DNA of 64,000 nt from Kineosporiaceae bacterium (GTDB lineage: Bacteria; Actinomycetota; Actinomycetes; Actinomycetales; Kineosporiaceae). The notes below the pieces were generated by a model. That model was not told the origin of the DNA, did not search any database, and saw nothing but the letters and a program-made list of their open reading frames with translations. This document shows positions 40,670-62,481 of the stretch, in pieces (the first letter of the stretch is position 1; every line of letters starts with the position of its first letter). A program made the position numbers and the translations under genes. The stretch covers positions 120,096 through 184,095 of the forward strand of contig JAXLRU010000005.1 of assembly GCA_046330935.1 (NCBI GenBank), given 5' to 3'.

Positions 40670-40743
40670 GGGGCGGTAGCTCAGCCGGTCAGAGCAGAGG
40701 GCTCATAACCCTTGGGTCCTGGGTTCGAACCCCAGCCGCCCTA
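40670..40743 (+). tRNA. tRNA with CAT anticodon (Met; elongator/initiator/Ile2 identity not resolvable)
   Basis: Acceptor GGGGCGG/CCGCCCT (G1-U72), D-arm GCTC AGCCGGTCA GAGC, anticodon stem with three GC pairs GGG-CTCATAA-CCC, T-arm CTGGG TTCGAAC CCCAG. Confidence 0.8.
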
Positions 40744-41031
40744 CCCCCGCGCGTGGCCTCCCGAGGCGGCCACGGGCCAGCTCTCCCGCCATGTGATGAG
40801 CCGGTCGACGAACTGGTCGACGCCGCAGCGCCACGGCTGCACGCCCCAGTGGTCCTCGAGGTGGTCCCAGACCAGCTCGCTGAGTTCGGCGCGGCTGAGC
40901 TGCTGCAGCAGTGCCGCGCGCAGCGGCCGCACGAGCTCCCCGTACTCCGGCAGTCCCGGCTCGGCCGCCTGCAGCGGGTCCCACGCCTCGACCTGCCCCC
41001 GCAGGGCCGCCTCGAGCGCCTCGTCGTCCAT
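40741..41031 (-). CDS. Hypothetical small protein (96 aa)
   Basis: MDDEALEAALRGQVEAWDPLQ... with coding-like third-position GC. No recognisable domain. Its stop overlaps the tRNA-Met 3' end by 3 nt on the opposite strand. Confidence 0.4.
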   Translation of the reverse strand: MDDEALEAALRGQVEAWDPLQAAEPGLPEYGELVRPLRAALLQQLSRAELSELVWDHLEDHWGVQPWRCGVDQFVDRLITWRESWPVAASGGHARG

Positions 41032-41096
41032 CTGCGGGGTGTCGGCCACCCGGGGCCCGGGGTTCACCGGCCGTCCGGGGGACATGCCCTCAGCGG

Positions 41097-41642
41097 TCAG
41101 CCCTGGCCGCCGAAGTGCCGCAGGAGCCCGCGGCGCCGACCCTGGGCGAGCGCGTCGGGGTGCGGCTTGGGCACGGGGGTGAACTGCACGCGCGGGCAGT
41201 CCGCCAGCGTGATGTCGCCGAAGCTCAGCGCCTCGTTGCACAGGCTCTGCACGGTCCAGCCCAGCTGGGACCCGACGGTCGTGATGGTGACCCGGTAGAT
41301 GGTGATCTCGTACCGGGTGGGGGTGCCGTACGCCACCTGGATCGTGCCGAGCAGCTTGGCCTCGCCGGGGCCGTCGCCGTCGCTCCACGGCCGGTCGTAG
41401 CGGTTCCAGCGGCTCGGCTCCGCCACCCACAGCCCCTCCGCGGTGGCGCTGTTGAGGGACATCTCGACGAGGATGGCGCGGCAGGCGTCCTCGGGGACCA
41501 CGGCCGCCGGCCGGATCACCTCGCTGATCACCCCGGTGTCGTAGGCCTCGTCGTAGGTGTCGGCGCGGTCCTCGCCGTCCGCGGGCCCGGACCTGCCGGA
41601 GCGACCACTCGGGAGGCTGCGACCGTTTCCGTCGGGGGACAT
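41097..41642 (-). CDS. Hypothetical protein (181 aa; disordered Gly/Ser/Arg N-terminus, about 130-aa globular C-terminal domain)
   Basis: The sequence DACRAILVEM...YEITIYRVTITTVGSQLGWTVQSLCNEALSFGDITLADCPRVQF has mixed, protein-like composition. No family assignable by eye. Confidence 0.45.
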   Translation of the reverse strand: MSPDGNGRSLPSGRSGRSGPADGEDRADTYDEAYDTGVISEVIRPAAVVPEDACRAILVEMSLNSATAEGLWVAEPSRWNRYDRPWSDGDGPGEAKLLGTIQVAYGTPTRYEITIYRVTITTVGSQLGWTVQSLCNEALSFGDITLADCPRVQFTPVPKPHPDALAQGRRRGLLRHFGGQG

Positions 41643-41941
41643 CTCGTGGCACCTCCCGCGCCGCGCCAGGGCAGCGGTCGGTCCGCTTCGTGGCGTCAGC
41701 CCTGTATCGGCCGCTGGCGTGCGGTTCTGGAGCCGATGCCAGGCCCTACCCGCCGCACGCACCTCTCGGCGACCGGTGATTGACTCCACCGGGCCCAGGG
41801 ACCAGGATTCCCGCCCGGAGCCCGCTGCCGGCGCGCCGTCGGCGGGTCGCTGCCCCGTGCCCCCGTCCCACCCGTTCGAAGCTCCGTCCCCTGTGGCTGC
41901 TTCCCGCCTGAGGGGGACCCGTCGATGTCGAGGCCCCCGCC

Positions 41942-44449
41942 ATGTCACTGTCGTCCCGCCGGTCGCGGATGGTCGGCGTCGCCACCGCCGGCGCCCTGGC
42001 CGCAGTCGCCCTCGTCGGGCCCCTCGGCTCGCCCGCGCAGGCCGCCACGTACAACTACACCGAGGCCCTGCAGAAGTCGATCATGTTCTACGAGGCGCAG
42101 CAGTCGGGGCGCCTGCCGTCGTGGAACCGGGTGCAGTGGCGCGGCGACGCGACCGTCAACGACGGTAAGGCCGCCGGGGTGGACCTGTCGGGCGGCTGGT
42201 ACGACGCGGGCGACCACGTGAAGTTCGGCTTCCCGATGGCGTTCGCGACGACGATGCTCGCGTGGGGCCTGGAGCACAACCGGGCCGGCTTCGTCTCGTC
42301 CAAGCAGCTCACCCCGATGGTGAACAACCTGCGCTGGGCCACCGACTACCTGATCGCGGCGCACCCGAGTCCGAACACCCTGTACGTGCAGGTCGGCGAC
42401 GGCAGCGTCGACCACGCGTACTGGGGTCCGCCGGAGGTCATCGACAAGCTGGGTCAGGCACGCCCGGTGGCCAAGATCGACACCACGTGCCGGGGAACCG
42501 ACGTCGCGGCCGAGACGGCCGCGTCGATGGCCGCCTCCGCCGTCGCGCTGCGCCCCTACGACGCCGCCTACGCCGACAAGCTCGTCACGCACGCCCAGCA
42601 GCTGATGGGGCTGGCCGAGACGCCGACGAACGTGGACGGCAAGGAGAACGCGTACGTCAACTGCGTGAAGGCGGCGCAGGGCTACTACACCTCGACCTTC
42701 GAGGGCGGGACCGCCAACCCGGGGGCCACCAAGATGTACTGGGACGAGCTGGCATGGGGTTCCCTGTGGCTCTACCGGGCGACGAACGACTCGTCGTGGC
42801 TGACCAAGGCCAAGGGTTACTACCCCAAGATGGGCACCGAGTCCCCGCCCGGGGGCGGCTGGAGTGATCAGGTGCCTGCCTACTCCTTCGGACTCGGCTG
42901 GAACGACAAGGAGTACGGCGTCTACGTGCTCATGGCCGCGCTGACCGGTGAGCAGCAGTACCGGACCGACGCCCAGCGGTACCTCGACTACTGGACGGTC
43001 GGGTACAACGGCAAGAAGGGCAAGTACACCCCCGGCGGCCTCGCGTTCATCTTCTACTGGGCTTCCCTGCGGATGTCCGCAGGCACCTCCTGGGCGGCCC
43101 TGGTCTACGCCGACTACCTCGGCAAGGACGACCCGCTCTATGCCCGGTACCACGACTTCGCGAAGCGCCAGATCGACTACGCCCTGGGTGACAACCCGGC
43201 CAAGCGCAGCTACATGGTCGGTTTCGGCGTGAACCCGCCCACGCACGTGCACCACCGTGCGGCCAGCGGCCAGTCGCTGGGGTACATGTCCGACCCCTCG
43301 GGCCCCAACCGTCACACCATCTACGGTGCTCTCGCGGGGGGACCCGACGACACCGACGGCTACGTCGACGACCGCAGCGACTACCAGCGCAACGAGGTCG
43401 CTGTCGACTACAACAGCAGCTTCACGGCGGCCCTGGCCCGGCTGGCCGCCGAGTACGGCGGTTCCCCGGTACCGGACTCCGCCCTGGTGGACCCCCAGCG
43501 GGACGCCGAGATGTCGGTGGGGCTGCTCAAGGACTTCTCCGGGCCCGACGGCTCGTCTTACCGCCTGCAGATCACCAACATGTCGGGCTGGCCACCGCGG
43601 ATCCTCTCCAAGGCGTCCCTGCGCTTCTACATCACCCTCGACGGCTCGACCACCGCCTCGCAGGTGTCGGTCACCTCGGGCCAGGACGCGTGCAAGACCG
43701 GCCCGCTCCAGCAGTACAAGGGCGCCGTCTGGTACGCGAACCTCGACTGCTCGGGGCTGGAGATCTACCCGGGCAGCACCTCCACCTACCAGAAGACGAC
43801 CTCGGTCAACTTCAAGGTGACCGGCGGCGCGGCCTGGGACCCGGCCAACGACTGGTCGGCCGGCGGGTCCGAGAAGGTGCAGCTGTTCGACGACGGCGTG
43901 CTCGTGTGGGGCTCCGACCCCGACGGGACGACGCCGAAGCCGACGACGTCCTCGCCGCGCCCCACCACGACCACCCCGGTGCCGACGACGACGAGCCCCG
44001 AGCCCACGACCAGCTCGCCGACGACGACTAAGAAGTCGAGCACCAAGAAGTCCTCGACGAGGAAGACCTCGCCGAAGAAGACGTCGACGAAGAAGAAGAC
44101 GTCCAAGAAGAAGTCGACCAAGAAGAAGACCACCAAGCGCACGCGCAACGCCGCCGGCCAGGCGTGCGAGGCGGAGCTCGTGGTGACCGACAGCTGGGGC
44201 ACCGGGTACCGGGCCCAGATCAGCGTCACGGCCCTGCGCTCGCTCACCGGCTGGGCGGTCAGCGCGCCGGCGACCGGGACCGCGCTCACCCAGTCGTGGG
44301 GCGGCTCCGTCGTCCTCGACGGCGGCTCACTGTCGGTCCGCCCGGCCTCGGCGGTCGCCGCTCGGGGCGCCGGCACCACGGCGGTCGTCGGCTTCACCGC
44401 CACGGGCGACGCCTCCGCTGCGCCCACCGCCCTGGCCTGTCAGGGCTGA
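41942..44449 (+). CDS. Secreted GH9 endoglucanase: signal peptide - GH9 catalytic domain - CBM3c-like domain - Thr/Pro then polylysine linker - CBM2
   Basis: Signal peptide ending AQA. GH9 signatures ([20 protein letters not shown]; HRAASG; catalytic D/E in the DYQRNEVA region). C-terminal CBM2 with Cys bracket and conserved Trp. Linker [37 protein letters not shown]. Confidence 0.9.
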
Positions 44450-50297: not shown

Positions 50298-51155
50298 TCA
50301 GTCGCGCCCGCGGGCCGCGAGCTCCTCGGCCACCGGCGGCACCTGCGTGAACAGCTCGCGCGGGGGGCGCTGGTAGTCGGGTGCGGGAGGTCGGGGCGGC
50401 AGCTCCAGCGACATCCTCGACGGCGCCTCGTAGGGCAGCGTGGACAACAGGTGGCTGATCATGTTGATCCGCGCGTGGCGCTTCACGTCGGCCTCGACCG
50501 TGTACCAGGGCGCCTCGGGGATGTCGGTGTGCACGAACATCTCGTCCTTGGCGCGCGAGAAGTCGACCCACTTGTCGCGCGTGCGCAGGTCGTTCTCCGA
50601 GAACTTCCAGCGCCGCAGCGGGTCCTCCAACCGGGACCGGAAACGGCGCTCCTGCTCCTCGTCGCTGACCGAGAACCAGTACTTGCGAAGGAGGATGCCG
50701 TCCTGCACCAGCATCCGCTCGAACAGCGGGCACTGGCGCAGGAAGAGCCGGTACTGCTCCGGCGTGCAGTAGCCCATGACGCGCTCGACCCCGGCGCGGT
50801 TGTACCAGGAGCGGTCGAGCAGCACGATCTCGCCCGCCGCCGGCAGGTGGGCGACGTAGCGCTGGAAGTACCACTGCGTCTGCTCGCGCTCCGTCGGCGT
50901 CGGCAGCGCCACGATCCGCGCCACGCGCGGGTTGAGGAACTCGGTGATGCGCTTGATCGTGCTGCCCTTGCCCGCGGCGTCGCGGCCCTCGAACACGACC
51001 ACGAGGCGCTGGCCGGTGGCCTTCACCCATTCCTGGACGGCGACCAGCTCGCCCTGCAGCCGGCGTAGCTCGGCCTCGTACCCCTTGCGGGACAGCCGGG
51101 GGCCCGTGGACTCGGCGGATCGGTCGCGGTCGTGCGCGGAGTGTGCGGCGGACAT
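50298..51155 (-). CDS. ppk2: Polyphosphate kinase 2 family (polyP:nucleotide phosphotransferase)
   Basis: Walker A FEGRDAAGKGSTIKR and Walker B/lid region. 285 aa single-domain PPK2. Confidence 0.85.
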   Translation of the reverse strand: MSAAHSAHDRDRSAESTGPRLSRKGYEAELRRLQGELVAVQEWVKATGQRLVVVFEGRDAAGKGSTIKRITEFLNPRVARIVALPTPTEREQTQWYFQRYVAHLPAAGEIVLLDRSWYNRAGVERVMGYCTPEQYRLFLRQCPLFERMLVQDGILLRKYWFSVSDEEQERRFRSRLEDPLRRWKFSENDLRTRDKWVDFSRAKDEMFVHTDIPEAPWYTVEADVKRHARINMISHLLSTLPYEAPSRMSLELPPRPPAPDYQRPPRELFTQVPPVAEELAARGRD

Positions 51156-51364
51156 GGCCCCACTCCACCGTCGGGCCGCCCTCCGGCGCAAGGCGGACAT
51201 GCCCCCGATCAGGACCCGATGTCCGGCTACGCCATGATTGCCCCGATCCGGCGCACGGGGCGCGGCGGCTGGTCGCTCCTGACGGGTGCCGGGGCTATGG
51301 TCGAGAGGCCGGGTGAGGCGCACGCAGCACCAGGGCGCGCTGAACCCGGGGGAGGAGGACGGCA

Positions 51365-52075
51365 ATGCCGCTGTGGAGCCGTTGGGACAGGCTGAGGCGG
51401 CGCCTTGCCGCGCCCTCGGCACCCGCCGTGCCGACCGATGCCCCGTCGGAGACGGCGCTGCGCGCCCGGCTGAACGCCGATCCGAACGACGTGGCCGCGT
51501 TCGCCACCCTGGCCGAGGTGGTCCGCACCCGCGCCCACGACTCCGCCGAGCGTCCGGCCTACCCGCGCCGCGCCCGCTCGGCCGACCCGGGTCGCGAGGC
51601 GGACGACGCTGTCTGGGCGCTCGCCGAGGAACTCGCCCACTCGCCTCGTGCCTGGTTCCCCCTCATCGAGATGGCGCGCCTGTCCATCGACGACGACCGC
51701 GGGGGCGCCATGCGCCGCCTCGGCACGGCGGCGGAACGCGACCCCAGCGGTGAGGCGCTCGTCGAGGGGGTGGCCATGCTCCGCCGGGCCGGGCACCCCA
51801 CGGATGCACTCAACCTCGGCGTCGGGCATTGGCGCCCTCGCGAGCACACCCCAGCCGTGGGCCGGCACCTCGTCGAGGCGGCCCTGGAGACCGGTCGCGC
51901 CCCCGAGGCGCGCCGCCATCTCGCCGCGCTCGCCGGGCGCGAGGACGCCGCCGAGCTGCGCGGCCTGCTGGAGGAGCTCGAGCAGCAGATCAAGCGCGTG
52001 GACCGTGGGCGGACGATCGACCTGCGCACCGCCAACGAGCAGGTCGGCGAGGGCCGCCCGGGTCGCGACCGCTGA
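51365..52075 (+). CDS. Hypothetical protein (helical, TPR-like?)
   Basis: RBS GGAGGA 8 nt upstream of the ATG. Coding-like third-position GC bias. The opposite-strand ORF looks like an artefact. Confidence 0.4.
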   Translation: MPLWSRWDRLRRRLAAPSAPAVPTDAPSETALRARLNADPNDVAAFATLAEVVRTRAHDSAERPAYPRRARSADPGREADDAVWALAEELAHSPRAWFPLIEMARLSIDDDRGGAMRRLGTAAERDPSGEALVEGVAMLRRAGHPTDALNLGVGHWRPREHTPAVGRHLVEAALETGRAPEARRHLAALAGREDAAELRGLLEELEQQIKRVDRGRTIDLRTANEQVGEGRPGRDR

Positions 52076-56285: not shown

Positions 56286-56358
56286 GGGCCTGTAGCTCAG
56301 TTGGTAGAGCACCGCGCTTACACCGCGGCTGTCGTCGGTTCGAGTCCGGCCGGGCCCA
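56286..56358 (+). tRNA. tRNA-Val (anticodon TAC)
   Basis: Acceptor GGGCCTG/CGGGCCC, D-arm GCTC AGTTGGTA GAGC, anticodon stem-loop CCGCG CTTACAC CGCGG, T-arm GTCGG TTCGAGT CCGGC. Confidence 0.9.
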
Positions 56359-56479
56359 CTGCCGCCTCACCGCGCCGCGTCGGCGCGGCCTGACGGCGAC
56401 GTCCCTCCCCTCACGTGCCGCAGTTGTGGCCCGGGCCAGGCCCGGACCACCCCTGCGGCGCGTCGGTACCTCCCCAGGA

Positions 56480-58687
56480 TCAGCGCAGGGTGCAGCTCAG
56501 CCGCGAGGGTGAGGCCGCGCCGGCCACGACGACCGGAACCGCCGCCGACGCGCCTGCCGCGATCGGCGTCGTCGCGGTCAGCGTCACGCCCGGAGCCGCC
56601 GTCACCGCCAGGGTGCCCGCCTGCGTCACGTCGGTGCCCTCGGGCATCCCGACCGACCAGCCCGTCGCTGCCGCCGTTGCCGTGAGGGTGAGGACGCCCG
56701 CCGAACCGGAGCCCCACGCCGAGGTGAGGCGGTAGGTCACGGTGCAGCCGGGCCCCTCCCCGACGACGAGGGCGGCAGCGGGAGCCAGGGCCCGCGGGCG
56801 GGTGGTCTTCTTCTTCGTGGTCTTCTTCTTCGTGGTCTTCTTCTTGGTCGTCTTCTTCTTCGTGGTCTTCTTGGTGGGCTTCTTCGTGGTGCCGGGCTTG
56901 CTGGTGACCGGCTTCGAGGTGACCGGCTTCGTCGTCACGGGGGGAGTCGTGCCCGGCGCCGACGTCGTCGGCTTGGGGGAGGTGCCCGGCGTCGTCTGCG
57001 TGGGGGTGGGGGTGGTGGCCCCGCCCCAGCCGGCCGCGGAGTCGAGCCAGGAGGCCCGGGCGTGCATCCAGGTGGACAGCGCCGAGACCTGCCCCTGCCA
57101 GGTGGGTTCCGTGGACGTCTGGAAGAAGCCGATCGTGGCCTGGGACAGGTTGGGCCACTGCGTGAAGTTGCGCCCCGCCGCGTTCACCAGCGGAGCCGTC
57201 AGCGCCGCGACCTTCGCGTCGAGCGCGGCATCGGACAGCACGCCGCGGCGCAGCTCCTGCCAGCGCGCCCGCACCTGGTTGGCAAAGGCGGGGTCGGCCA
57301 TCAGCAGCGGGATCCAGTCGGTGGCCATGGGGGTGCGCTGGGAGATCTGCTGGTACTGCCAGCCCGAGGTCTGGTTGTTGCCGAAGAACCCGCCGACGCC
57401 GAAGGTCAGGTCGTAGTCCCAGCCCGGCCCGGAGGTGAGCAGGCCGCCGCGGTCCTTGGAGAAGTAGGCGCTGCGGACGTAGGCGTCCATGTCGCGGCTG
57501 AGCTCGTTGAGGACGACCGTGTCGACGAAGGAGCCCACATCGATGAACGCGCGGTACCCGGTGGCGGGGTCGCCGATGTCGGGCTGGTGCAGCCGGGCGT
57601 GGAACCGGGTGAGGTAGTCCCGGATGTAGGCGAGCTGCTCGGGTGCCGCGTCGTCGGGGTCGGCCAGCTCGACGTAGGTGAAGCAGGGGGAGACCCCGGA
57701 GCAGGTGATCAGCGTGCCGTCGGCCGCCATCCACTCGACCTTCACGATGTAGCCGCCCTCGACGTCGGGGGCCTGCAGGTCGGTCGACTTGAGCTTCTTG
57801 AGGTTCAGCCGGTCCTTCTGGTTCTTGATCGTCTCCATCATCATGTAGACGCCCCGGTAGTCCTCGGGTCCGACCGTCCCGTCGGCCACGTTGAGGTACA
57901 GCTCCACGAACCGGTAGCGCGGGGCGTAGCGGCCCATGTCCCGGGCGAGGTCGAACATCAGGGCGTTGCGGATGAGCGACTTGTCGGTGAAGGGCCCGCG
58001 CAGCACCCAGTCGGACTCGGCCGGCATCCCGAGGACGGGCAGGTCGACGTCGTCGTCGAGGTTGTCCCGCAGCTCGACCTTGTACTGCGCCTTGTCGAAC
58101 GTGGCCGAGGACTGCCCCCGCAGGTGGAAGCCGACGCGCGAGGTGAGGGTCGGGCGCCCCGACGGCGTCACCGTGCCGGTGCCCTCGAACGTCATCAGGG
58201 CGGCGTCCAGGTAGGGGTCCTTCGCCGGTTTGCCCTTGCCGAAGTCGTCGAGGACCACGACCGGCAGGTCGTGCTGCTGCGTGACGGCCTGCTTGAGGTA
58301 GAACGCCGAGGACGGGGCGCCCACCGGCGTGGACCCCGAGAACGCCTGGGCGCGCAGGCGGGTGCTCGTCGTCACGGTCAGGGCGCCCGACGCGGCCGGC
58401 GAGGAGGCCGAGGGCAGGCTCCCGTCGGTGGTGTAGCGGACGCTCGCCCCGGCCTGGGTCGTCGTCAGCGAGACCTGCAGGGACCCCGAGAACGTCTGAC
58501 TCGGCACCGAGAACGCGACGTCCCCGAGCATCGGGTCGGTCTCGGCCGCCTTCGCGGGCGACACGCGCTGCGCGGTGGCGGCGGCTCCACCCGTTGCCTC
58601 GGCGGGGACGAGCACCGTGGCCGACAGCGGCAGGGCGAGCGCGAGACCGACCGCGAGGAGGGCGGGACGCGTGCGGCGCAGGGACAT
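56480..58687 (-). CDS. Secreted CotH kinase-family protein: signal peptide - chitobiase/Fn3-like N-domain - CotH domain - Thr/Pro then (KKKTT)n linker - CBM2-like domain (copy 1)
   Basis: Signal peptide MSLRRTRPALLAVGLALALPLSA. CotH core (WVLRGPFTDKSLIRNALMFDLARDMGRYAPRYRFVELYLN...YRGVYMMMETIKNQ). C-terminal CxxxY...W...W...C CBM2-like module. Confidence 0.75.
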   Translation of the reverse strand: MSLRRTRPALLAVGLALALPLSATVLVPAEATGGAAATAQRVSPAKAAETDPMLGDVAFSVPSQTFSGSLQVSLTTTQAGASVRYTTDGSLPSASSPAASGALTVTTSTRLRAQAFSGSTPVGAPSSAFYLKQAVTQQHDLPVVVLDDFGKGKPAKDPYLDAALMTFEGTGTVTPSGRPTLTSRVGFHLRGQSSATFDKAQYKVELRDNLDDDVDLPVLGMPAESDWVLRGPFTDKSLIRNALMFDLARDMGRYAPRYRFVELYLNVADGTVGPEDYRGVYMMMETIKNQKDRLNLKKLKSTDLQAPDVEGGYIVKVEWMAADGTLITCSGVSPCFTYVELADPDDAAPEQLAYIRDYLTRFHARLHQPDIGDPATGYRAFIDVGSFVDTVVLNELSRDMDAYVRSAYFSKDRGGLLTSGPGWDYDLTFGVGGFFGNNQTSGWQYQQISQRTPMATDWIPLLMADPAFANQVRARWQELRRGVLSDAALDAKVAALTAPLVNAAGRNFTQWPNLSQATIGFFQTSTEPTWQGQVSALSTWMHARASWLDSAAGWGGATTPTPTQTTPGTSPKPTTSAPGTTPPVTTKPVTSKPVTSKPGTTKKPTKKTTKKKTTKKKTTKKKTTKKKTTRPRALAPAAALVVGEGPGCTVTYRLTSAWGSGSAGVLTLTATAAATGWSVGMPEGTDVTQAGTLAVTAAPGVTLTATTPIAAGASAAVPVVVAGAASPSRLSCTLR

Positions 58688-58777
58688 CGGAGGTCCTTTC
58701 CGGCGGCCCCGTCGCCGCCATCGGCGAGGGAGCGCGCTCATGCAGGGGAGCGGAGGGATCGCCGTGGTGCTCGCCGG

Positions 58778-60985
58778 TCAGTTCAGGCGGCACCCGATGC
58801 CGTCGGGCGGGCCGGGCTCACCCGAGACGAGCGAGATCGTGACGCTGTCGCCGGCCGCGAGTCCGGGGCCGGCCGCGGGTGACCTCAACGTCAGCGCCGG
58901 GGTCCGGGCCACGTCCGCCCCCGACACCTGGGTGACGTCGCTGCCATCGGGGAGGACGACGGCCCACCCCGACGCGGGCGCGTCGGCGGTCAGCGTCACC
59001 AGGGCCTGGGAGCCCGACGGCCACGCCGACACCAGGCGGTAGCTCACGGTGCACCCGGGTCCGCTCCCGAGCAGGCTCGCGGGGACCGCCGCCGCCCGGG
59101 TGGTCTTCTTGCGGGTCGTCTTCCTCGTGGTGGTCTTCTTGCGCGTCGACTTCTTCCGGGTGGTCTTCTTCTTGCTGGTCGACTTCCTGGTCGTGGGCTT
59201 CTTCGAGGTGACCGGCTTGGTCGTCGTCGGCGGCGTGCTCGTGGGGGGCTTCGTGGTCGTGCCCGGGGTGGTCCGGGTCGGCGTCGGCGTGGTGGCCCCG
59301 CCCCAGCCGGCCGTGGAGTCCAGCCAGGCGGCGCGCTGGTGCATCCAGGTCTTCATGACGCCGACCTGGCCCTGCCACGTCGGCTCCGTCGACGTCTTGA
59401 AGCGGTAGATGCCGAGGACGGGCGTCGTGAGGTAGTCCCAGCGCTGGAAGTTGCGTCCCGCGGCGTTCGCCAGCGGCGCGGTGATCGAGGCCACCTTCGC
59501 GTCCAGCGCGGCGTCCGACAGCGGGCCGCGGCGCAGTTCCTGCCAGCGTGCCCGCACCTGGTTGGCGAAGGCGGGGTCGGCCATGAGCACCGGGAACCAG
59601 TCGGCGGCGACAGGCTGGTGCGCGGCGACCTGGTCGTACTGCCAGCCGGAGATCTGGTCGTTGCTGTAGGTCCCGCCGGTGGAGAACGTGAGGTCCCAGT
59701 CCCAGCCGGGCCCGGACGTGATCAGGCCGCCGCGGTCCTTGGAGAAGTAGGCGCTGCGGACGTAGGCGTCCTGGTTGCGGCTGAATTCCTCGAGGATCAC
59801 CGTGTCGACGAAGGAGCCGACGTCGATCCACGAGGGGTAGCCGTTGGTCGGGTCGGCGATGTTCGTCCCGTGCAGGCGCGCGTGGAACCGCGAGAGATGG
59901 TCGCTGATCCAGGCGAGCTGGGCCGGGACGGCGTCATCGGGGTCGTACAGCTCGACGTCGTTGAAGCAGGGCGTGGTCCCGGTGCAGCTGATGATCGGCT
60001 GTTCCGCCGCCCGCCACTCGACCTTGAAGATGTACCCGCCCTCGATCGCCGGGGCGGTGACGTCGTCCTCCTTCAGCTTCTTCAGGTCGAGTCGGTCCTT
60101 CTGGTTCTTGATCGTCTCCATCATCATGTAGACGCCCACGTAGTCCTCGGGCCCGACCACGCCGTCCCCGGTGTTCAGGTACAGCTCGACGAACCGGTAC
60201 CGCGGCGCGTACCGGCCCAGGTCCCGGGCCAGGTCGAACATGAGGGCGTTGCGCACCAGCGACTTGTCGGCGTAGGGGCCGCGCAGCACCCAGTCGGATT
60301 CGGCGGGCATCCCGAGCACGGGCAGGTCGACGTCGTCGTCGGCGTTGTCGCGCAGCTCGAGGCGGTACTGGGGCTTGTCGAACATCGACGAGGACTGCCC
60401 GCGCAGCTTGAACCCCGCTCGCGTGGTGAGGGTGGGCACCCCCGAGGGCGTCACGGTGCCCGCACCTTCGAAGACCATCAGCGCGGCGTCGACGTAGGAC
60501 TGCTTGGTCGGCTTGCCCTTGCCGAAGTCGTCCATCACGACCACCGGCAGGTCGTGCTGCTGGGTCACGGCCTGGCGCAGGTAGAACGCCGAGGACGGCG
60601 CACCGGCTGCCGTGCTGCCCGCAAAGGCCTGCGCCCGCAGGCGGGTCGTGGCCGTGAGGGTGAGCGCGCCGGTGGCGGCGGGCGAGGACGCCGTGGGGGC
60701 GCTCCCGTCGGTCGTGTACCGGACGGTGGCTCCCGCCTGCGTCGTCGAGAGGGTCACCTGCAGCGAGCCGGTGAACGTCTGGCTCGGCACGGAGAAGGCG
60801 ACGTCCCCCAGCATCGGGTCTTCCTCGGCCTCCTTGGCGGGCGACGCCTGGCCGTCGGGGGCGGTCACGGCCGCGCGAGCGTTACCGCCGACGGCCTCGG
60901 CGGGGACCAGGACGACCGCGGACAGGGGCAGCGCCAGTGCGAGGCCGACCGCGAGGAGGGCAGGGCGGGTGCGGCGCAGCGACAT
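58778..60985 (-). CDS. Secreted CotH kinase-family protein with K-rich linker and CBM2-like C-terminus (copy 2, tandem paralogue)
   Basis: Near-identical signal peptide and CotH core to copy 1, roughly 75% identity by eye. More divergent linker/CBM. RBS-ATG at 60985. Confidence 0.75.
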   Translation of the reverse strand: MSLRRTRPALLAVGLALALPLSAVVLVPAEAVGGNARAAVTAPDGQASPAKEAEEDPMLGDVAFSVPSQTFTGSLQVTLSTTQAGATVRYTTDGSAPTASSPAATGALTLTATTRLRAQAFAGSTAAGAPSSAFYLRQAVTQQHDLPVVVMDDFGKGKPTKQSYVDAALMVFEGAGTVTPSGVPTLTTRAGFKLRGQSSSMFDKPQYRLELRDNADDDVDLPVLGMPAESDWVLRGPYADKSLVRNALMFDLARDLGRYAPRYRFVELYLNTGDGVVGPEDYVGVYMMMETIKNQKDRLDLKKLKEDDVTAPAIEGGYIFKVEWRAAEQPIISCTGTTPCFNDVELYDPDDAVPAQLAWISDHLSRFHARLHGTNIADPTNGYPSWIDVGSFVDTVILEEFSRNQDAYVRSAYFSKDRGGLITSGPGWDWDLTFSTGGTYSNDQISGWQYDQVAAHQPVAADWFPVLMADPAFANQVRARWQELRRGPLSDAALDAKVASITAPLANAAGRNFQRWDYLTTPVLGIYRFKTSTEPTWQGQVGVMKTWMHQRAAWLDSTAGWGGATTPTPTRTTPGTTTKPPTSTPPTTTKPVTSKKPTTRKSTSKKKTTRKKSTRKKTTTRKTTRKKTTRAAAVPASLLGSGPGCTVSYRLVSAWPSGSQALVTLTADAPASGWAVVLPDGSDVTQVSGADVARTPALTLRSPAAGPGLAAGDSVTISLVSGEPGPPDGIGCRLN

Positions 60986-61087
60986 GGGTGTGTCCTTTCC
61001 GGCGGCTTCGCTGCCGTCGGGTCGCAGGGTGCTCGGGCGGGGCGGGAGGACCTCGGGTGGGGCGGGCAAGGAGCTTGGATCGACGCC

Positions 61088-61882
61088 TCAGGGGATGGCG
61101 AAGTGACGCCGCAGGGTCCGGCGCCAGGGGGCGTTCGGCAGGTCGGGACGCAGCGCCGCCAGGCCGGTGGCGTACTTGGAGATGCGGGTCGGCCGCACCC
61201 CGTGGGCCCACAGCAGCCGGTCGACGGGGGAGGCGCCGCCCGCGGACTTGGTCTCCACCACGGCGAGGAACGGCGCCCTCGCGGTGCCGGCGCTGCACCG
61301 CCACGTCAGGTCGGTGTCGACGGTGAGGCGGCTGTCGCACTCCTCGACGAGGAGCGTGGTGCGCCGGTAGGTGCCGAACATGACCGGCTGCAGGCTGGCG
61401 GCGCAGGGGCAGATGCCGTGGTCGGCCAGCGTGCCGTCGACGAAGTCGTGCGCCCCCTCCAGCATGTAGCGGTCGGTCAGGGGGTGCGGTTGGCGGGTCT
61501 TGACCGTGGCGCCCCGGGGGCCGCGGGTCTTGACCTCCAGCCAGCACTGGCCGGCGTCGAGGTAGCTGCGCGTGCGGACCTTGAACCGGCGGCGACGACG
61601 GGTGGCCGCCAGGCGGTACCCGAGGAAGTCCTCCGTGTCGAAGTACACCGATTCGTACGTGAAGGACCGCAAAGCGTCGATCTGCAGGACGCGCAGGTCG
61701 AGCTTCGCGCCCGACAGGACGGCGGCGGCCTGGTCGACGGTCAGGACGTACTTGCGGTCGATCCGGGTCTGCAGGGCCGCCCGCTCGTTGAGCTGGTCGA
61801 GGCCGACCGCGGGCAGTCCCGCGGCCCAGTCGGCGAGGGTCAGGCCCCAGACCGGGGCGATGGACGTCGTGATCGTGCTCAC
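61088..61882 (-). CDS. VTC-domain (CYTH-like polyphosphate polymerase domain) protein
   Basis: The N-terminal pattern RIDRKYVLTVDQ...LRVLQIDALRSFTYESVYFDTEDF matches the E-x-K-Y...Y-x-S-x-Y-F-D opening of VTC/CYTH tunnel domains. GTG start overlaps the DUF4956 stop (GTGA). Confidence 0.65.
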   Translation of the reverse strand: MSTITTSIAPVWGLTLADWAAGLPAVGLDQLNERAALQTRIDRKYVLTVDQAAAVLSGAKLDLRVLQIDALRSFTYESVYFDTEDFLGYRLAATRRRRRFKVRTRSYLDAGQCWLEVKTRGPRGATVKTRQPHPLTDRYMLEGAHDFVDGTLADHGICPCAASLQPVMFGTYRRTTLLVEECDSRLTVDTDLTWRCSAGTARAPFLAVVETKSAGGASPVDRLLWAHGVRPTRISKYATGLAALRPDLPNAPWRRTLRRHFAIP

Positions 61883-62481
61883 CGGCGGGCCCCCTCACGG
61901 AGGTTCACGTCGCGGGTGAGAGAGGGCAGCCCCGCCGGGGCGGCCGAGTACAGGACGTCCACCACGGTGGTGTCGTTGACGAGGTCGAGGCGCTGGACGC
62001 TGGCCCGGTGCACGGTGCCGCCGAGCAGTTGCTCGAGCGTCGCCTGCAGGGTCTCGGGGGCGGCGACGGCCTGGTCGAGGATGACGACCTGGCGGCGGTA
62101 CCCCGCACCCCAGCGGGGGTGGTCGCCGATGTAGAGCACGAGCAGGAGCAGCGCCATGAGCGAGGCGGGTACCCAGGGCTGGGCGGCGCCGAGGGCCCCG
62201 ATGACGCCGAGGGCGAGGGCCGCGAAGTAGTAGGCGACCTCGTGGTGGTCGAGTTCGGTGGAGCGCAGCCGGATGATCGACAGCACGCCGAGGAGGCCGA
62301 GGCCGAGCCCGAAGCCGGCCGAGGAACTCACCGAGCTGAGCGACGTGGTGACCGCCAGGACGCCGCAGTTGACGCCGAGGAATGCGAGGACGAGATCGCG
62401 CCGACGATGGCGGGGAAGATAGATCCCGAAAACGAGGACGAGGACGGCCACGACGTCCAGGGCGAACAGGACCGCTTGCAC
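61879..62481 (-). CDS. DUF4956-like small polytopic membrane protein (first gene of the CotH/VTC operon)
   Basis: 200 aa with three to four TM helices, then a soluble C-terminal tail. RBS GGAGG before the GTG. Family assignment is from memory of the DUF4956-VTC-CotH gene triad. Confidence 0.45.
   Translation of the reverse strand: MQAVLFALDVVAVLVLVFGIYLPRHRRRDLVLAFLGVNCGVLAVTTSLSSVSSSAGFGLGLGLLGVLSIIRLRSTELDHHEVAYYFAALALGVIGALGAAQPWVPASLMALLLLVLYIGDHPRWGAGYRRQVVILDQAVAAPETLQATLEQLLGGTVHRASVQRLDLVNDTTVVDVLYSAAPAGLPSLTRDVNLREGARR

Follow-up and report, generated by a model that had tools for sequence, protein, structure and literature searches.

Lysine-rich tracts in a cellulase and two CotH kinases

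We analysed a 64-kb stretch of DNA (64,000 nucleotides, in the following called the window) from the metagenome-assembled genome (MAG) of an uncultured Kineosporiaceae bacterium (assembly GCA_046330935.1, contig JAXLRU010000005.1, positions 120,096 to 184,095 of the forward strand). The window encodes a glycoside hydrolase family 9 (GH9) endoglucanase and, 12 kb away, two CotH kinases (CotH1 and CotH2). In each of these three proteins a lysine-rich tract (K-tract) is located between an uncharged Pro/Thr spacer and a C-terminal domain that resembles carbohydrate-binding modules of family 2 (CBM2). All three proteins match NCBI entries of this MAG identically. The genes and their relevant parts are listed below (aa, amino acids).

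41942..44449, plus strand: GH9 endoglucanase gene, 835 aa (MFN8076160 at NCBI, identical to P0121), identified as an open reading frame (ORF) with Pfam matches
43922..44023, plus strand: uncharged Pro/Thr/Ser spacer of GH9 (aa 661-694), 88% identical to that of an orthologue
44024..44146, plus strand: K/S/T tract of GH9 (aa 695-735), 41 aa with 17 K and 3 R, net charge +20
44165..44446, plus strand: CBM2-like beta-sandwich of GH9 (aa 742-835), Pfam CBM_2 at 34.9 bits
56480..58741, minus strand: CotH kinase 1 gene, 735 aa from the annotated start (P0001), identified by Pfam
56792..56935, minus strand: K/T tract of CotH1 (aa 603-650), 48 aa with 19 K and 2 R, net charge +21, four KKKTT units
56483..56746, minus strand: degenerate CBM2-like domain of CotH1, Pfam CBM_2 at 17.7 bits and positional homology to the bona fide CBM2 of CotH homologues
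58778..61069, minus strand: CotH kinase 2 gene, 735 aa from the annotated start (P0002), identified by Pfam
59096..59224, minus strand: K/R/T/S tract of CotH2 (aa 616-658), 43 aa with 14 K and 6 R, net charge +20
58781..59053, minus strand: degenerate CBM2-like domain of CotH2, Pfam CBM_2 at 21.2 bits and alignment

A six-frame scan of the window for lysine, with a threshold of at least 9 Lys per 30 aa, returned exactly three segments, namely those in the GH9 cellulase, CotH1 and CotH2. All three tracts lie in frame and occupy the same position, with the Pro/Thr spacer on one side and the C-terminal CBM2-like domain on the other. The cellulase consists of a signal peptide, the GH9 domain, a CBM3, the Pro/Thr spacer, the K-tract and the CBM2-like domain (Glyco_hydro_9 at 465 bits, with further Pfam matches to CBM_3 and CBM_2). 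In CotH1, the signal peptide is followed by CHB_HEX_C, the CotH domain, the Pro/Thr spacer, the K-tract and the CBM2-like domain. The CotH domain (PF08757) scores 200.4 bits in CotH1 and 199.4 bits in CotH2, CHB_HEX_C is found in both, and signal-peptide-like N-termini were recognised by inspection in all three proteins. CotH1 and CotH2 are adjacent tandem paralogues with 68% identity over the full length.

Lys and Arg make up 42-49% of the tract residues and Ser and Thr 40-49%, and Asp and Glu are absent from all three tracts. Outside the tracts, Lys accounts for only 2.6-3.5% of the residues of the same proteins. The net charge is nearly constant (+20, +21 and +20) despite differing repeat sequences. 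Every tract Lys is encoded by AAG. The nonamer AAGAAGAAG occurs eight times in the window, always within one of the three tracts, compared with 0.03 copies expected from dinucleotide-preserving shuffles. Tandem Repeats Finder (TRF) detected a 15-bp period, corresponding to 5 aa, in all three tracts, with 4.7 copies of the unit at 92% match in CotH1. A previous reading of this DNA from the sequence alone (the sequence-only reading) had described about four perfect 15-bp repeats in CotH1; the four KKKTT units are indeed present, but only two of them are identical at the DNA level. It had also spoken of runs of 40-80 polycationic residues, which proved too long, as the cationic runs measure 41-48 aa. 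The interval 43905..44160 that it assigned to the GH9 linker contains the K-tract but takes in the ordinary Pro/Thr spacer (about 43922..44023) as well. In an AlphaFold2 (AF2) model of the GH9 tail, the K-tract has no predicted secondary structure (predicted local distance difference test, pLDDT, 56-68).

The Lys runs are real. Frame errors and sequencing artefacts are excluded since the tracts are in frame with Pfam domains on both sides and since a GH9 orthologue of 86% identity (P0122, locus L005), which comes from another, independently assembled sample, has the same in-frame tract. Shadow ORFs opposite the tracts (43786..44427 on the minus strand and 56742..57416 on the plus strand) were rejected; they encode Phe/Val runs.

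Distribution of the tract among homologues and within the genome

The sequence-only reading had regarded Lys-rich CBM linkers as atypical for actinobacteria and had proposed a search of related genomes. We inspected the best 120 CotH and the best 120 GH9 homologues and found a Lys-rich tract in 7 of these 240 proteins (4 CotH, 3 GH9), so that this assessment holds. The CotH proteins concerned are P0001-P0004, i.e. the two kinases of the window and two metagenomic relatives, and the GH9 proteins are that of the window, the orthologue P0122 and P0217, a further GH9 found in a Kineosporiaceae MAG. No 30-aa segment with more than 6 Lys occurs in 113 of the 120 CotH and 117 of the 120 GH9 homologues. 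The underlying architectures, CHB_HEX_C-CotH-linker-CBM2 and GH9-CBM3-linker-CBM2, are widespread in actinobacterial homologues with Pro/Thr linkers (Micromonospora, Cellulomonas, Nonomuraea and others), and the relatives P0123 and P0350 have Thr-rich linkers with an occasional K or R. Descriptions of Lys-rich CBM2 or cellulase linkers were not found in the open-access literature, which is weak evidence of absence.

Additional carriers were sought with profiles of five K-tract-CBM2 tails. A word-indexed profile search was swamped by low-complexity Lys-rich proteins and gave P0241 as its sole scored match. An exhaustive search of 50%-cluster representatives, in which tract-bearing members under a tract-less representative stay hidden, added among the best 150 of 2447 matches two lytic polysaccharide monooxygenases (LPMOs) of family AA10 (P0276 and, by way of its cluster, P0390), a fragment and one unknown protein. 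In the source MAG, at least six secreted proteins thus carry the tract, namely two GH9, two AA10 LPMOs and two CotH, and all of them are ordered Pro/Thr spacer, Lys-rich tract, CBM2-like domain. The GH9 of the window (MFN8076160), the LPMOs adjacent to each other (MFN8076868 and MFN8076869) and the second GH9 (MFN8077727) seem to come from one assembly, judged by their consecutive MFN807xxxx accessions; the genes of the second GH9 and the LPMOs are on other contigs. Exact look-ups of the genomic context of the window GH9 and of P0217 gave no entry for either. As judged from the homologues compared, the Lys-rich tract is a lineage-specific trait.

We also scanned a genome collection with one genome per species, from which the source MAG was not recovered, for the pattern KK[ST][ST]KKK[ST][ST]K encoded with AAG. 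At least 117 loci were found, and, judged by the N-terminal sequences, nearly all of them lie in the tails of TopA, HU/H1-like, ribosomal and similar cytoplasmic proteins of high-GC bacteria. None of the matches listed, from these at least 117 loci, has a CBM2 context.

A conserved cysteine loop and relatives that lack CBM2

The tracts of the LPMOs, of the second GH9 and of the metagenomic CotH proteins P0003 and P0004 contain a conserved Cys loop, e.g. CKTGKNGKKTCKT. It has the form CKTGKNGK[KP]TCKT or CRTNKKGVK[ST]CKT and is found in P0217 (aa ~705-730), P0276, P0390, P0241 and the C-termini of P0003 and P0004. From a shallow alignment of four sequences, AF2 predicts a cationic beta-hairpin with moderate confidence (pLDDT 66-75), which is probably stapled by a disulfide. 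A metagenome scan for DNA encoding the CKTGKNGK part of the loop gave 65 matches; none was in a Lys-rich high-GC context and they were taken as chance.

P0003 (L001, 19..1995) and P0004 have no CBM2 and nevertheless keep a Lys-rich C-terminal tail. Both end with TPWLAGR, and since this is exactly where the CBM2 would begin, it seems likely that the CBM2 was lost and the Lys-rich tail retained. A scaffold gap of 10 N follows the stop codon in L001, so that an assembly effect is possible for the end of P0003, but P0004 ends alike.

Predicted fold and aromatic face of the CBM2-like domains

With the Pfam gathering score for CBM_2 (PF00553) at 24 bits, only the tail of GH9 passes, and those of CotH1 and CotH2 remain below. 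A profile of the five K-linked tails matches the CBM2 of Cellulomonas fimi Cex (1exg) with E = 3.5e-10. The CBM2-like part of GH9 is predicted by AF2 as a confident beta-sandwich (pLDDT 82-95). Its best Foldseek matches are the C. fimi Cex CBM2 structures 6qfs and 1exg, with target-normalised template modelling (TM) scores of 0.69-0.77, and further matches in the PDB are the CBM2 domains of EngD and ScLPMO10C.

In alignments to 1exg and canonical CBM2s, all three tails have retained both disulfide Cys, the equivalent of W17 and the structural Trp. That of W54 is still present in GH9 but has disappeared from both CotH proteins. None of the five K-linked tails that were aligned (the three window proteins, P0122 and P0217) has retained the equivalent of W72, a position that holds W, Y or H in ordinary homologues. 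The trio of coplanar surface aromatics of CBM2a, formed by W17, W54 and W72, is therefore incomplete in every tail of the window.

Sequence divergence along the tails

Comparison of the GH9 with its orthologue gave amino acid identities of 86% for the catalytic domain plus CBM3, 88% for the Pro/Thr spacer, 65% for the K-tract and about 36% for the CBM2-like domain. Within the K-tract, the two proteins differ by a 12-aa in-frame indel, and the cationic character is kept. The ratio of nonsynonymous to synonymous substitution rates (dN/dS, NG86 method; the tract values rest on 30-43 codons of low-complexity alignment) is 0.18 for the catalytic part, 0.19 for the Pro/Thr spacer, 0.41 for the K-tract and 0.91 for the CBM2-like domain. 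The second half of this domain reaches 1.18, for which relaxed and diversifying selection are both possible. Between CotH1 and CotH2 the ratio rises in a similar way, from 0.34 in the core through 0.47 in the K-tract to 0.62 in the CBM2-like domain. The K-tract is thus more constrained than the CBM2-like domain behind it, which evolves nearly neutrally or is being retargeted.

The synonymous divergence (dS) of the GH9 pair amounts to 0.49 for the catalytic part and to 0.72-0.75 for the tail and was taken as similar along the gene, which argues for divergence in situ and not for replacement of the tail. Over the core of the CotH proteins, the pairs that appear to be orthologous share 76-78% of their residues, compared with 76.5% between CotH1 and CotH2 and 67% between P0003 and P0004. 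The type of tail is common to the paralogues within a genome and not to the orthologues, P0003 and P0004 having one type and CotH1 and CotH2 another. This suggests, at the level of sequence comparison, concerted evolution or gene conversion between the tandem CotH copies.

The CotH gene cluster and the surroundings of the GH9 gene

Two further genes lie upstream of the CotH pair.

61088..61882, minus strand: VTC-domain gene (Pfam), directly upstream of the CotH pair
61879..62481, minus strand: DUF4956 membrane-protein gene (Pfam), upstream of the VTC gene

The DUF4956 and VTC genes and the CotH pair follow one another in the same direction (56480..62481, minus strand). The VTC protein has no signal peptide, and the DUF4956 protein has several hydrophobic segments. 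A scan of the CotH operon for promoters and terminators gave nothing above chance. At the positions aligned to the FDG and WDYD motifs of Bacillus cereus CotH (5jd9), CotH1 and CotH2 have invariant Asp residues, although the alignment is weak (E = 0.029). These residues presumably correspond to D228 and D251 of the Bacillus subtilis protein. A phmmer search of the PDB with CotH1 gave no match; profiles reached 5jd9 weakly. Directly downstream of CotH1 there is a tRNA-Val (56286..56359, plus strand), and a tRNA-like sequence occupies the same place in L001. A PPK2 gene (50298..51422, minus strand, Pfam 346.7 bits), which encodes a second polyphosphate-related enzyme, is located about 5 kb from the CotH-VTC-DUF4956 cluster.

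The neighbours of the GH9 gene are of a housekeeping kind, with amt/glnB-like ORFs upstream (by inspection) and DUF3145 (Pfam) followed by fatty-acid synthesis-like ORFs (by inspection) downstream. A tRNA-Met (40670..40745, plus strand) lies upstream of the GH9 region. Three ORFs of 236-303 aa have no Pfam match, 51365..52075 on the plus strand and 40741..41652 and 41097..41948 on the minus strand. The latter two overlap each other just upstream of GH9, and one or neither of them may be a real gene.

Discussion

We tentatively favour the explanation that the tracts are a lineage-specific, selectively maintained, disordered polycationic tether that supplements a CBM2 whose aromatic face has been partly lost. 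What the tract does, what it binds and how it arose by mutation we infer as follows. The tract may have arisen in the Kineosporiaceae lineage in the distal part of an ordinary Thr-rich linker, by parallel changes of Thr ACG to Lys AAG, each of one base, and subsequent replication slippage would have amplified the unit. In this role it would tether the secreted enzyme to some anionic surface, electrostatically and without specificity. The surface could be weakly anionic cellulose or plant cell wall, the envelope polymers of the bacterium itself or extracellular DNA in the matrix. The tract would supplement, and in some relatives replace, a CBM2 with a decaying aromatic face. Its placement after the Pro/Thr spacer and directly before the C-terminal module suggests that functionally it belongs to the end with which the protein binds. 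Since such repeats are elsewhere found in the tails of nucleic-acid-binding proteins, the repeat seems to be a generic polyanion-binding sequence, and its use in signal-peptide-bearing carbohydrate-active enzymes (CAZymes) is the unusual part. That the tracts attract polyanions, as the sequence-only reading had supposed, is physically certain. As an experimental precedent, positive supercharging of the Thermobifida fusca CBM2a lowered its Kd on crystalline cellulose by a factor of more than 3 (bioRxiv 10.1101/2023.09.09.557007). Engineering work has recently found that positive charge added to a CBM2a increases its affinity for cellulose and also makes the attached enzyme more active.

Several points weigh against this explanation. 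The dN/dS values of the tracts are based on few codons in a low-complexity alignment. The CBM2-like domain that we call decaying may instead be retargeted, as it is still predicted to fold and keeps the disulfide Cys. Nor does the explanation account for the high cost of bringing about +20 charges through an energised membrane. Sequence alone cannot choose among the candidate ligands. Also, the pairing of tract and CBM2 is known from the part of the genome that was seen.

The tracts could instead be a selectively neutral, slippage-driven variant of a Thr-rich linker, with no role other than that of a flexible, self-repelling spacer. Recent slippage is indicated by the near-identical 15-bp units, the tract length differs between orthologues, relatives with Thr-rich linkers already hold an occasional K or R, and Thr ACG is a single base change away from Lys AAG. 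We consider this unlikely, as a tract found on six or more proteins of a single genome is nearly absent from the 240 homologues, its net charge is constant and acidic residues are wholly excluded, and its dN/dS of 0.41-0.47 is below that of the adjacent domain. Additionally, the ordinary Pro/Thr spacer is retained upstream, so that the tract has been added to the spacer and has not taken its place, and the tracts of relatives contain the conserved Cys loop. A different origin was proposed in the sequence-only reading, namely recent shuffling of a linker-CBM2 cassette that would have brought it into both the cellulase and the kinases. This idea would fit the common order of Pro/Thr spacer, K-tract and CBM2-like domain in all three proteins, and the K-linked CBM2 domains do lie together in a neighbour-joining tree. 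However, they do so on long branches and with bootstrap values of 11-30%, i.e. there is no support for a clade. The CBM2-like domains of K-linked tails share on average 33% identity with each other and 31.5% with ordinary CBM2s, which among themselves share 46%; the identity between the tails of GH9 and the CotH proteins, 30-37%, does not exceed that with ordinary CBM2s. At the DNA level, where an alignment of the linker-CBM regions had been suggested as a check for recent shared ancestry, the tracts resemble each other in composition only (AAG plus ACS/TCS codons). The tail shared by CotH1 and CotH2 is explained by tandem duplication of the gene, both architectures are widespread in actinobacterial homologues, and the dS of the GH9 tail matches that of the remaining gene. 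Recent shuffling is thus largely refuted and has become extremely improbable.

Two other explanations make use of the genes around the kinases. CotB and CotG of B. subtilis, the validated substrates of the founding CotH kinase, consist in part of tandem Ser/Lys/Arg (SKR) repeats that are predicted to be disordered, with at least 30 phosphoserines in the SKR region of CotB (PMC7821199); the repeat region of CotG comprises 126 aa in 19 repeats of 6-7 aa, is 53.9% positive without a negative residue, arose by gene elongation and has its charge balanced by CotH phosphorylation (PMC9765600). The K-tracts share the short tandem repeats (here with a 5-aa period), the roughly 50% basic residues, the absence of acidic residues, the richness in Ser/Thr and, according to the AF2 model of GH9, the disorder. 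They are also genetically associated with cotH, as two of them are fused to CotH kinases that score about 200 bits in Pfam and keep the aligned Asp residues, and the third is 12 kb away. The tracts might therefore be SKR-like substrates that are phosphorylated in cis where they are part of CotH1 or CotH2 and in trans where they are part of GH9 or an LPMO; phosphorylation of many Ser/Thr would neutralise or invert the +20 charge and make the tether switchable. We regard this as rather improbable. In other actinobacteria the linkers of CotH-CBM2 proteins are of the plain Pro/Thr kind, so that the tract is not needed for CotH function, and the tracts follow CBM2 proteins and not CotH specifically. 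The LPMO tracts are poor in Ser/Thr (6 of 30 residues in P0390) and contain the predicted Cys-stapled hairpin, which fits a structural cation better than an array of acceptors. CotH1 offers only Thr, whereas known sites are mostly Ser, and the kinases are secreted, where a source of ATP is not evident. Somewhat less probable still is the full scenario in which the tracts are the actinobacterial counterpart of the CotG/CotB repeats and would be multiply phosphorylated extracellularly by CBM2-tethered CotH, with a donor perhaps tied to VTC/DUF4956, as a charge switch by which the cellulolytic secretome would attach to surfaces and come off again. The sequence-only reading had also considered that the tracts could bind polyphosphate (polyP) made by the adjacent VTC enzyme; the polyP would be exported via DUF4956 and bound non-covalently by the lysines. 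Among tested bacterial proteins, non-covalent polyP binders have 9 Lys in 20 aa and non-binders 5-7 (PMC12077175). The maxima are 11 in GH9 and 12 in CotH1, which by this sequence criterion makes binding of polyP in vitro likely for these two tracts, but only 8 in CotH2; the longest Lys run is KKK. The VTC and DUF4956 genes directly upstream of the CotH pair and the PPK2 gene 5 kb away are also in line with the idea. On the other hand, Cellulomonas flavigena has the same order DUF4956-VTC-CotH-CBM2 (L003, 4442..8109) with a plain, uncharged Pro/Thr linker in CotH, and a triad of CotH, VTC-like and four-transmembrane proteins adjoins the pel genes even in Streptococcus intermedius (bioRxiv 10.1101/2024.04.20.589940). 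The adjacency of VTC is thus generic to CotH genes and does not co-vary with the K-tract, which moreover occurs on GH9 and LPMO genes of other contigs. The VTC protein lacks a signal peptide, and export of polyP is only hypothetical. The noted resemblance to polyacidic, Ser- and Lys-rich (PASK) segments, defined by 20-aa windows in which D/E/S/K account for 75% or more and K occurs once or more, within a poly-acidic context (PMC12077175), extends to the composition of GH9, whose best window has exactly 75%, but not to CotH1 and CotH2 (60%), and acidic residues are absent from every tract. The link to VTC is hence weak, and polyP as the ligand seems very unlikely.

Linkers and CBMs govern how a cellulase finds its substrate and stays on it. 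If the tether explanation is true, the tracts would be a natural case of a charge-enhanced CBM2, in which a cellulolytic toolkit (GH9, LPMO, CotH) gained a +20 tail as the aromatic face eroded. The tract would then be a ready-made peptide for electrostatic targeting. The only known substrates of CotH kinases are closely similar basic, Ser-rich repeats, and the fusion to CotH gives a concrete substrate hypothesis for the secreted CotH-VTC-DUF4956 module, and phosphorylation of the tracts, if true, would be the first clue to a substrate of this widespread module outside sporulation. If the tracts are a neutral linker variant, they are a mere curiosity of low-complexity evolution.

Comparison with known systems

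Like the PT-box linkers of Cex and CenA of Cellulomonas fimi, the linkers described here are situated between the catalytic part and a C-terminal CBM2, are of low complexity, rich in Thr/Ser and predicted to be disordered. Unlike in these proteins, the distal 41-48 residues consist to 42-49% of Lys/Arg with a net charge of about +20, and the uncharged composition holds for the proximal spacer only. The domain behind the tract has the beta-sandwich, the terminal disulfide Cys and the W17 equivalent in common with the CBM2a of Cex (1exg). It differs in the loss of the W72 equivalent in all three proteins and of the W54 equivalent in both CotH, in a dN/dS near 1 in GH9 and in the sub-threshold scores of the CotH copies.

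A surface-exposed actinobacterial protein with a polycationic end is the mycobacterial HBHA, whose C-terminal Lys/Ala/Pro repeats (KKAAPA-type) bind anionic glycans electrostatically and function in host adhesion. To our knowledge, HBHA has no CBM or CAZyme context. The SKR repeats of CotG and CotB, which resemble the tracts in the features discussed above, belong to separate spore-coat proteins, whereas each tract is part of a secreted enzyme or of a CotH kinase itself. Also, Thr is as common as or commoner than Ser in the tracts, and the host is not a Bacillus-type spore former. With the targets of lysine polyphosphate modification (KPM), the tracts of GH9 and CotH1 share a Lys density that is even above that of positive bacterial targets; the known targets are intracellular, whereas the tract-bearing proteins are secreted. 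KKKTT/KKKST-type repeats of an identical kind, encoded by AAG plus ACS/TCS codons, are found in the C-terminus of topoisomerase I and in HU/H1-like tails of high-GC bacteria. These are cytoplasmic DNA/RNA binders, whereas the tracts of the window belong to secreted CAZymes and kinases and stand beside a CBM2.

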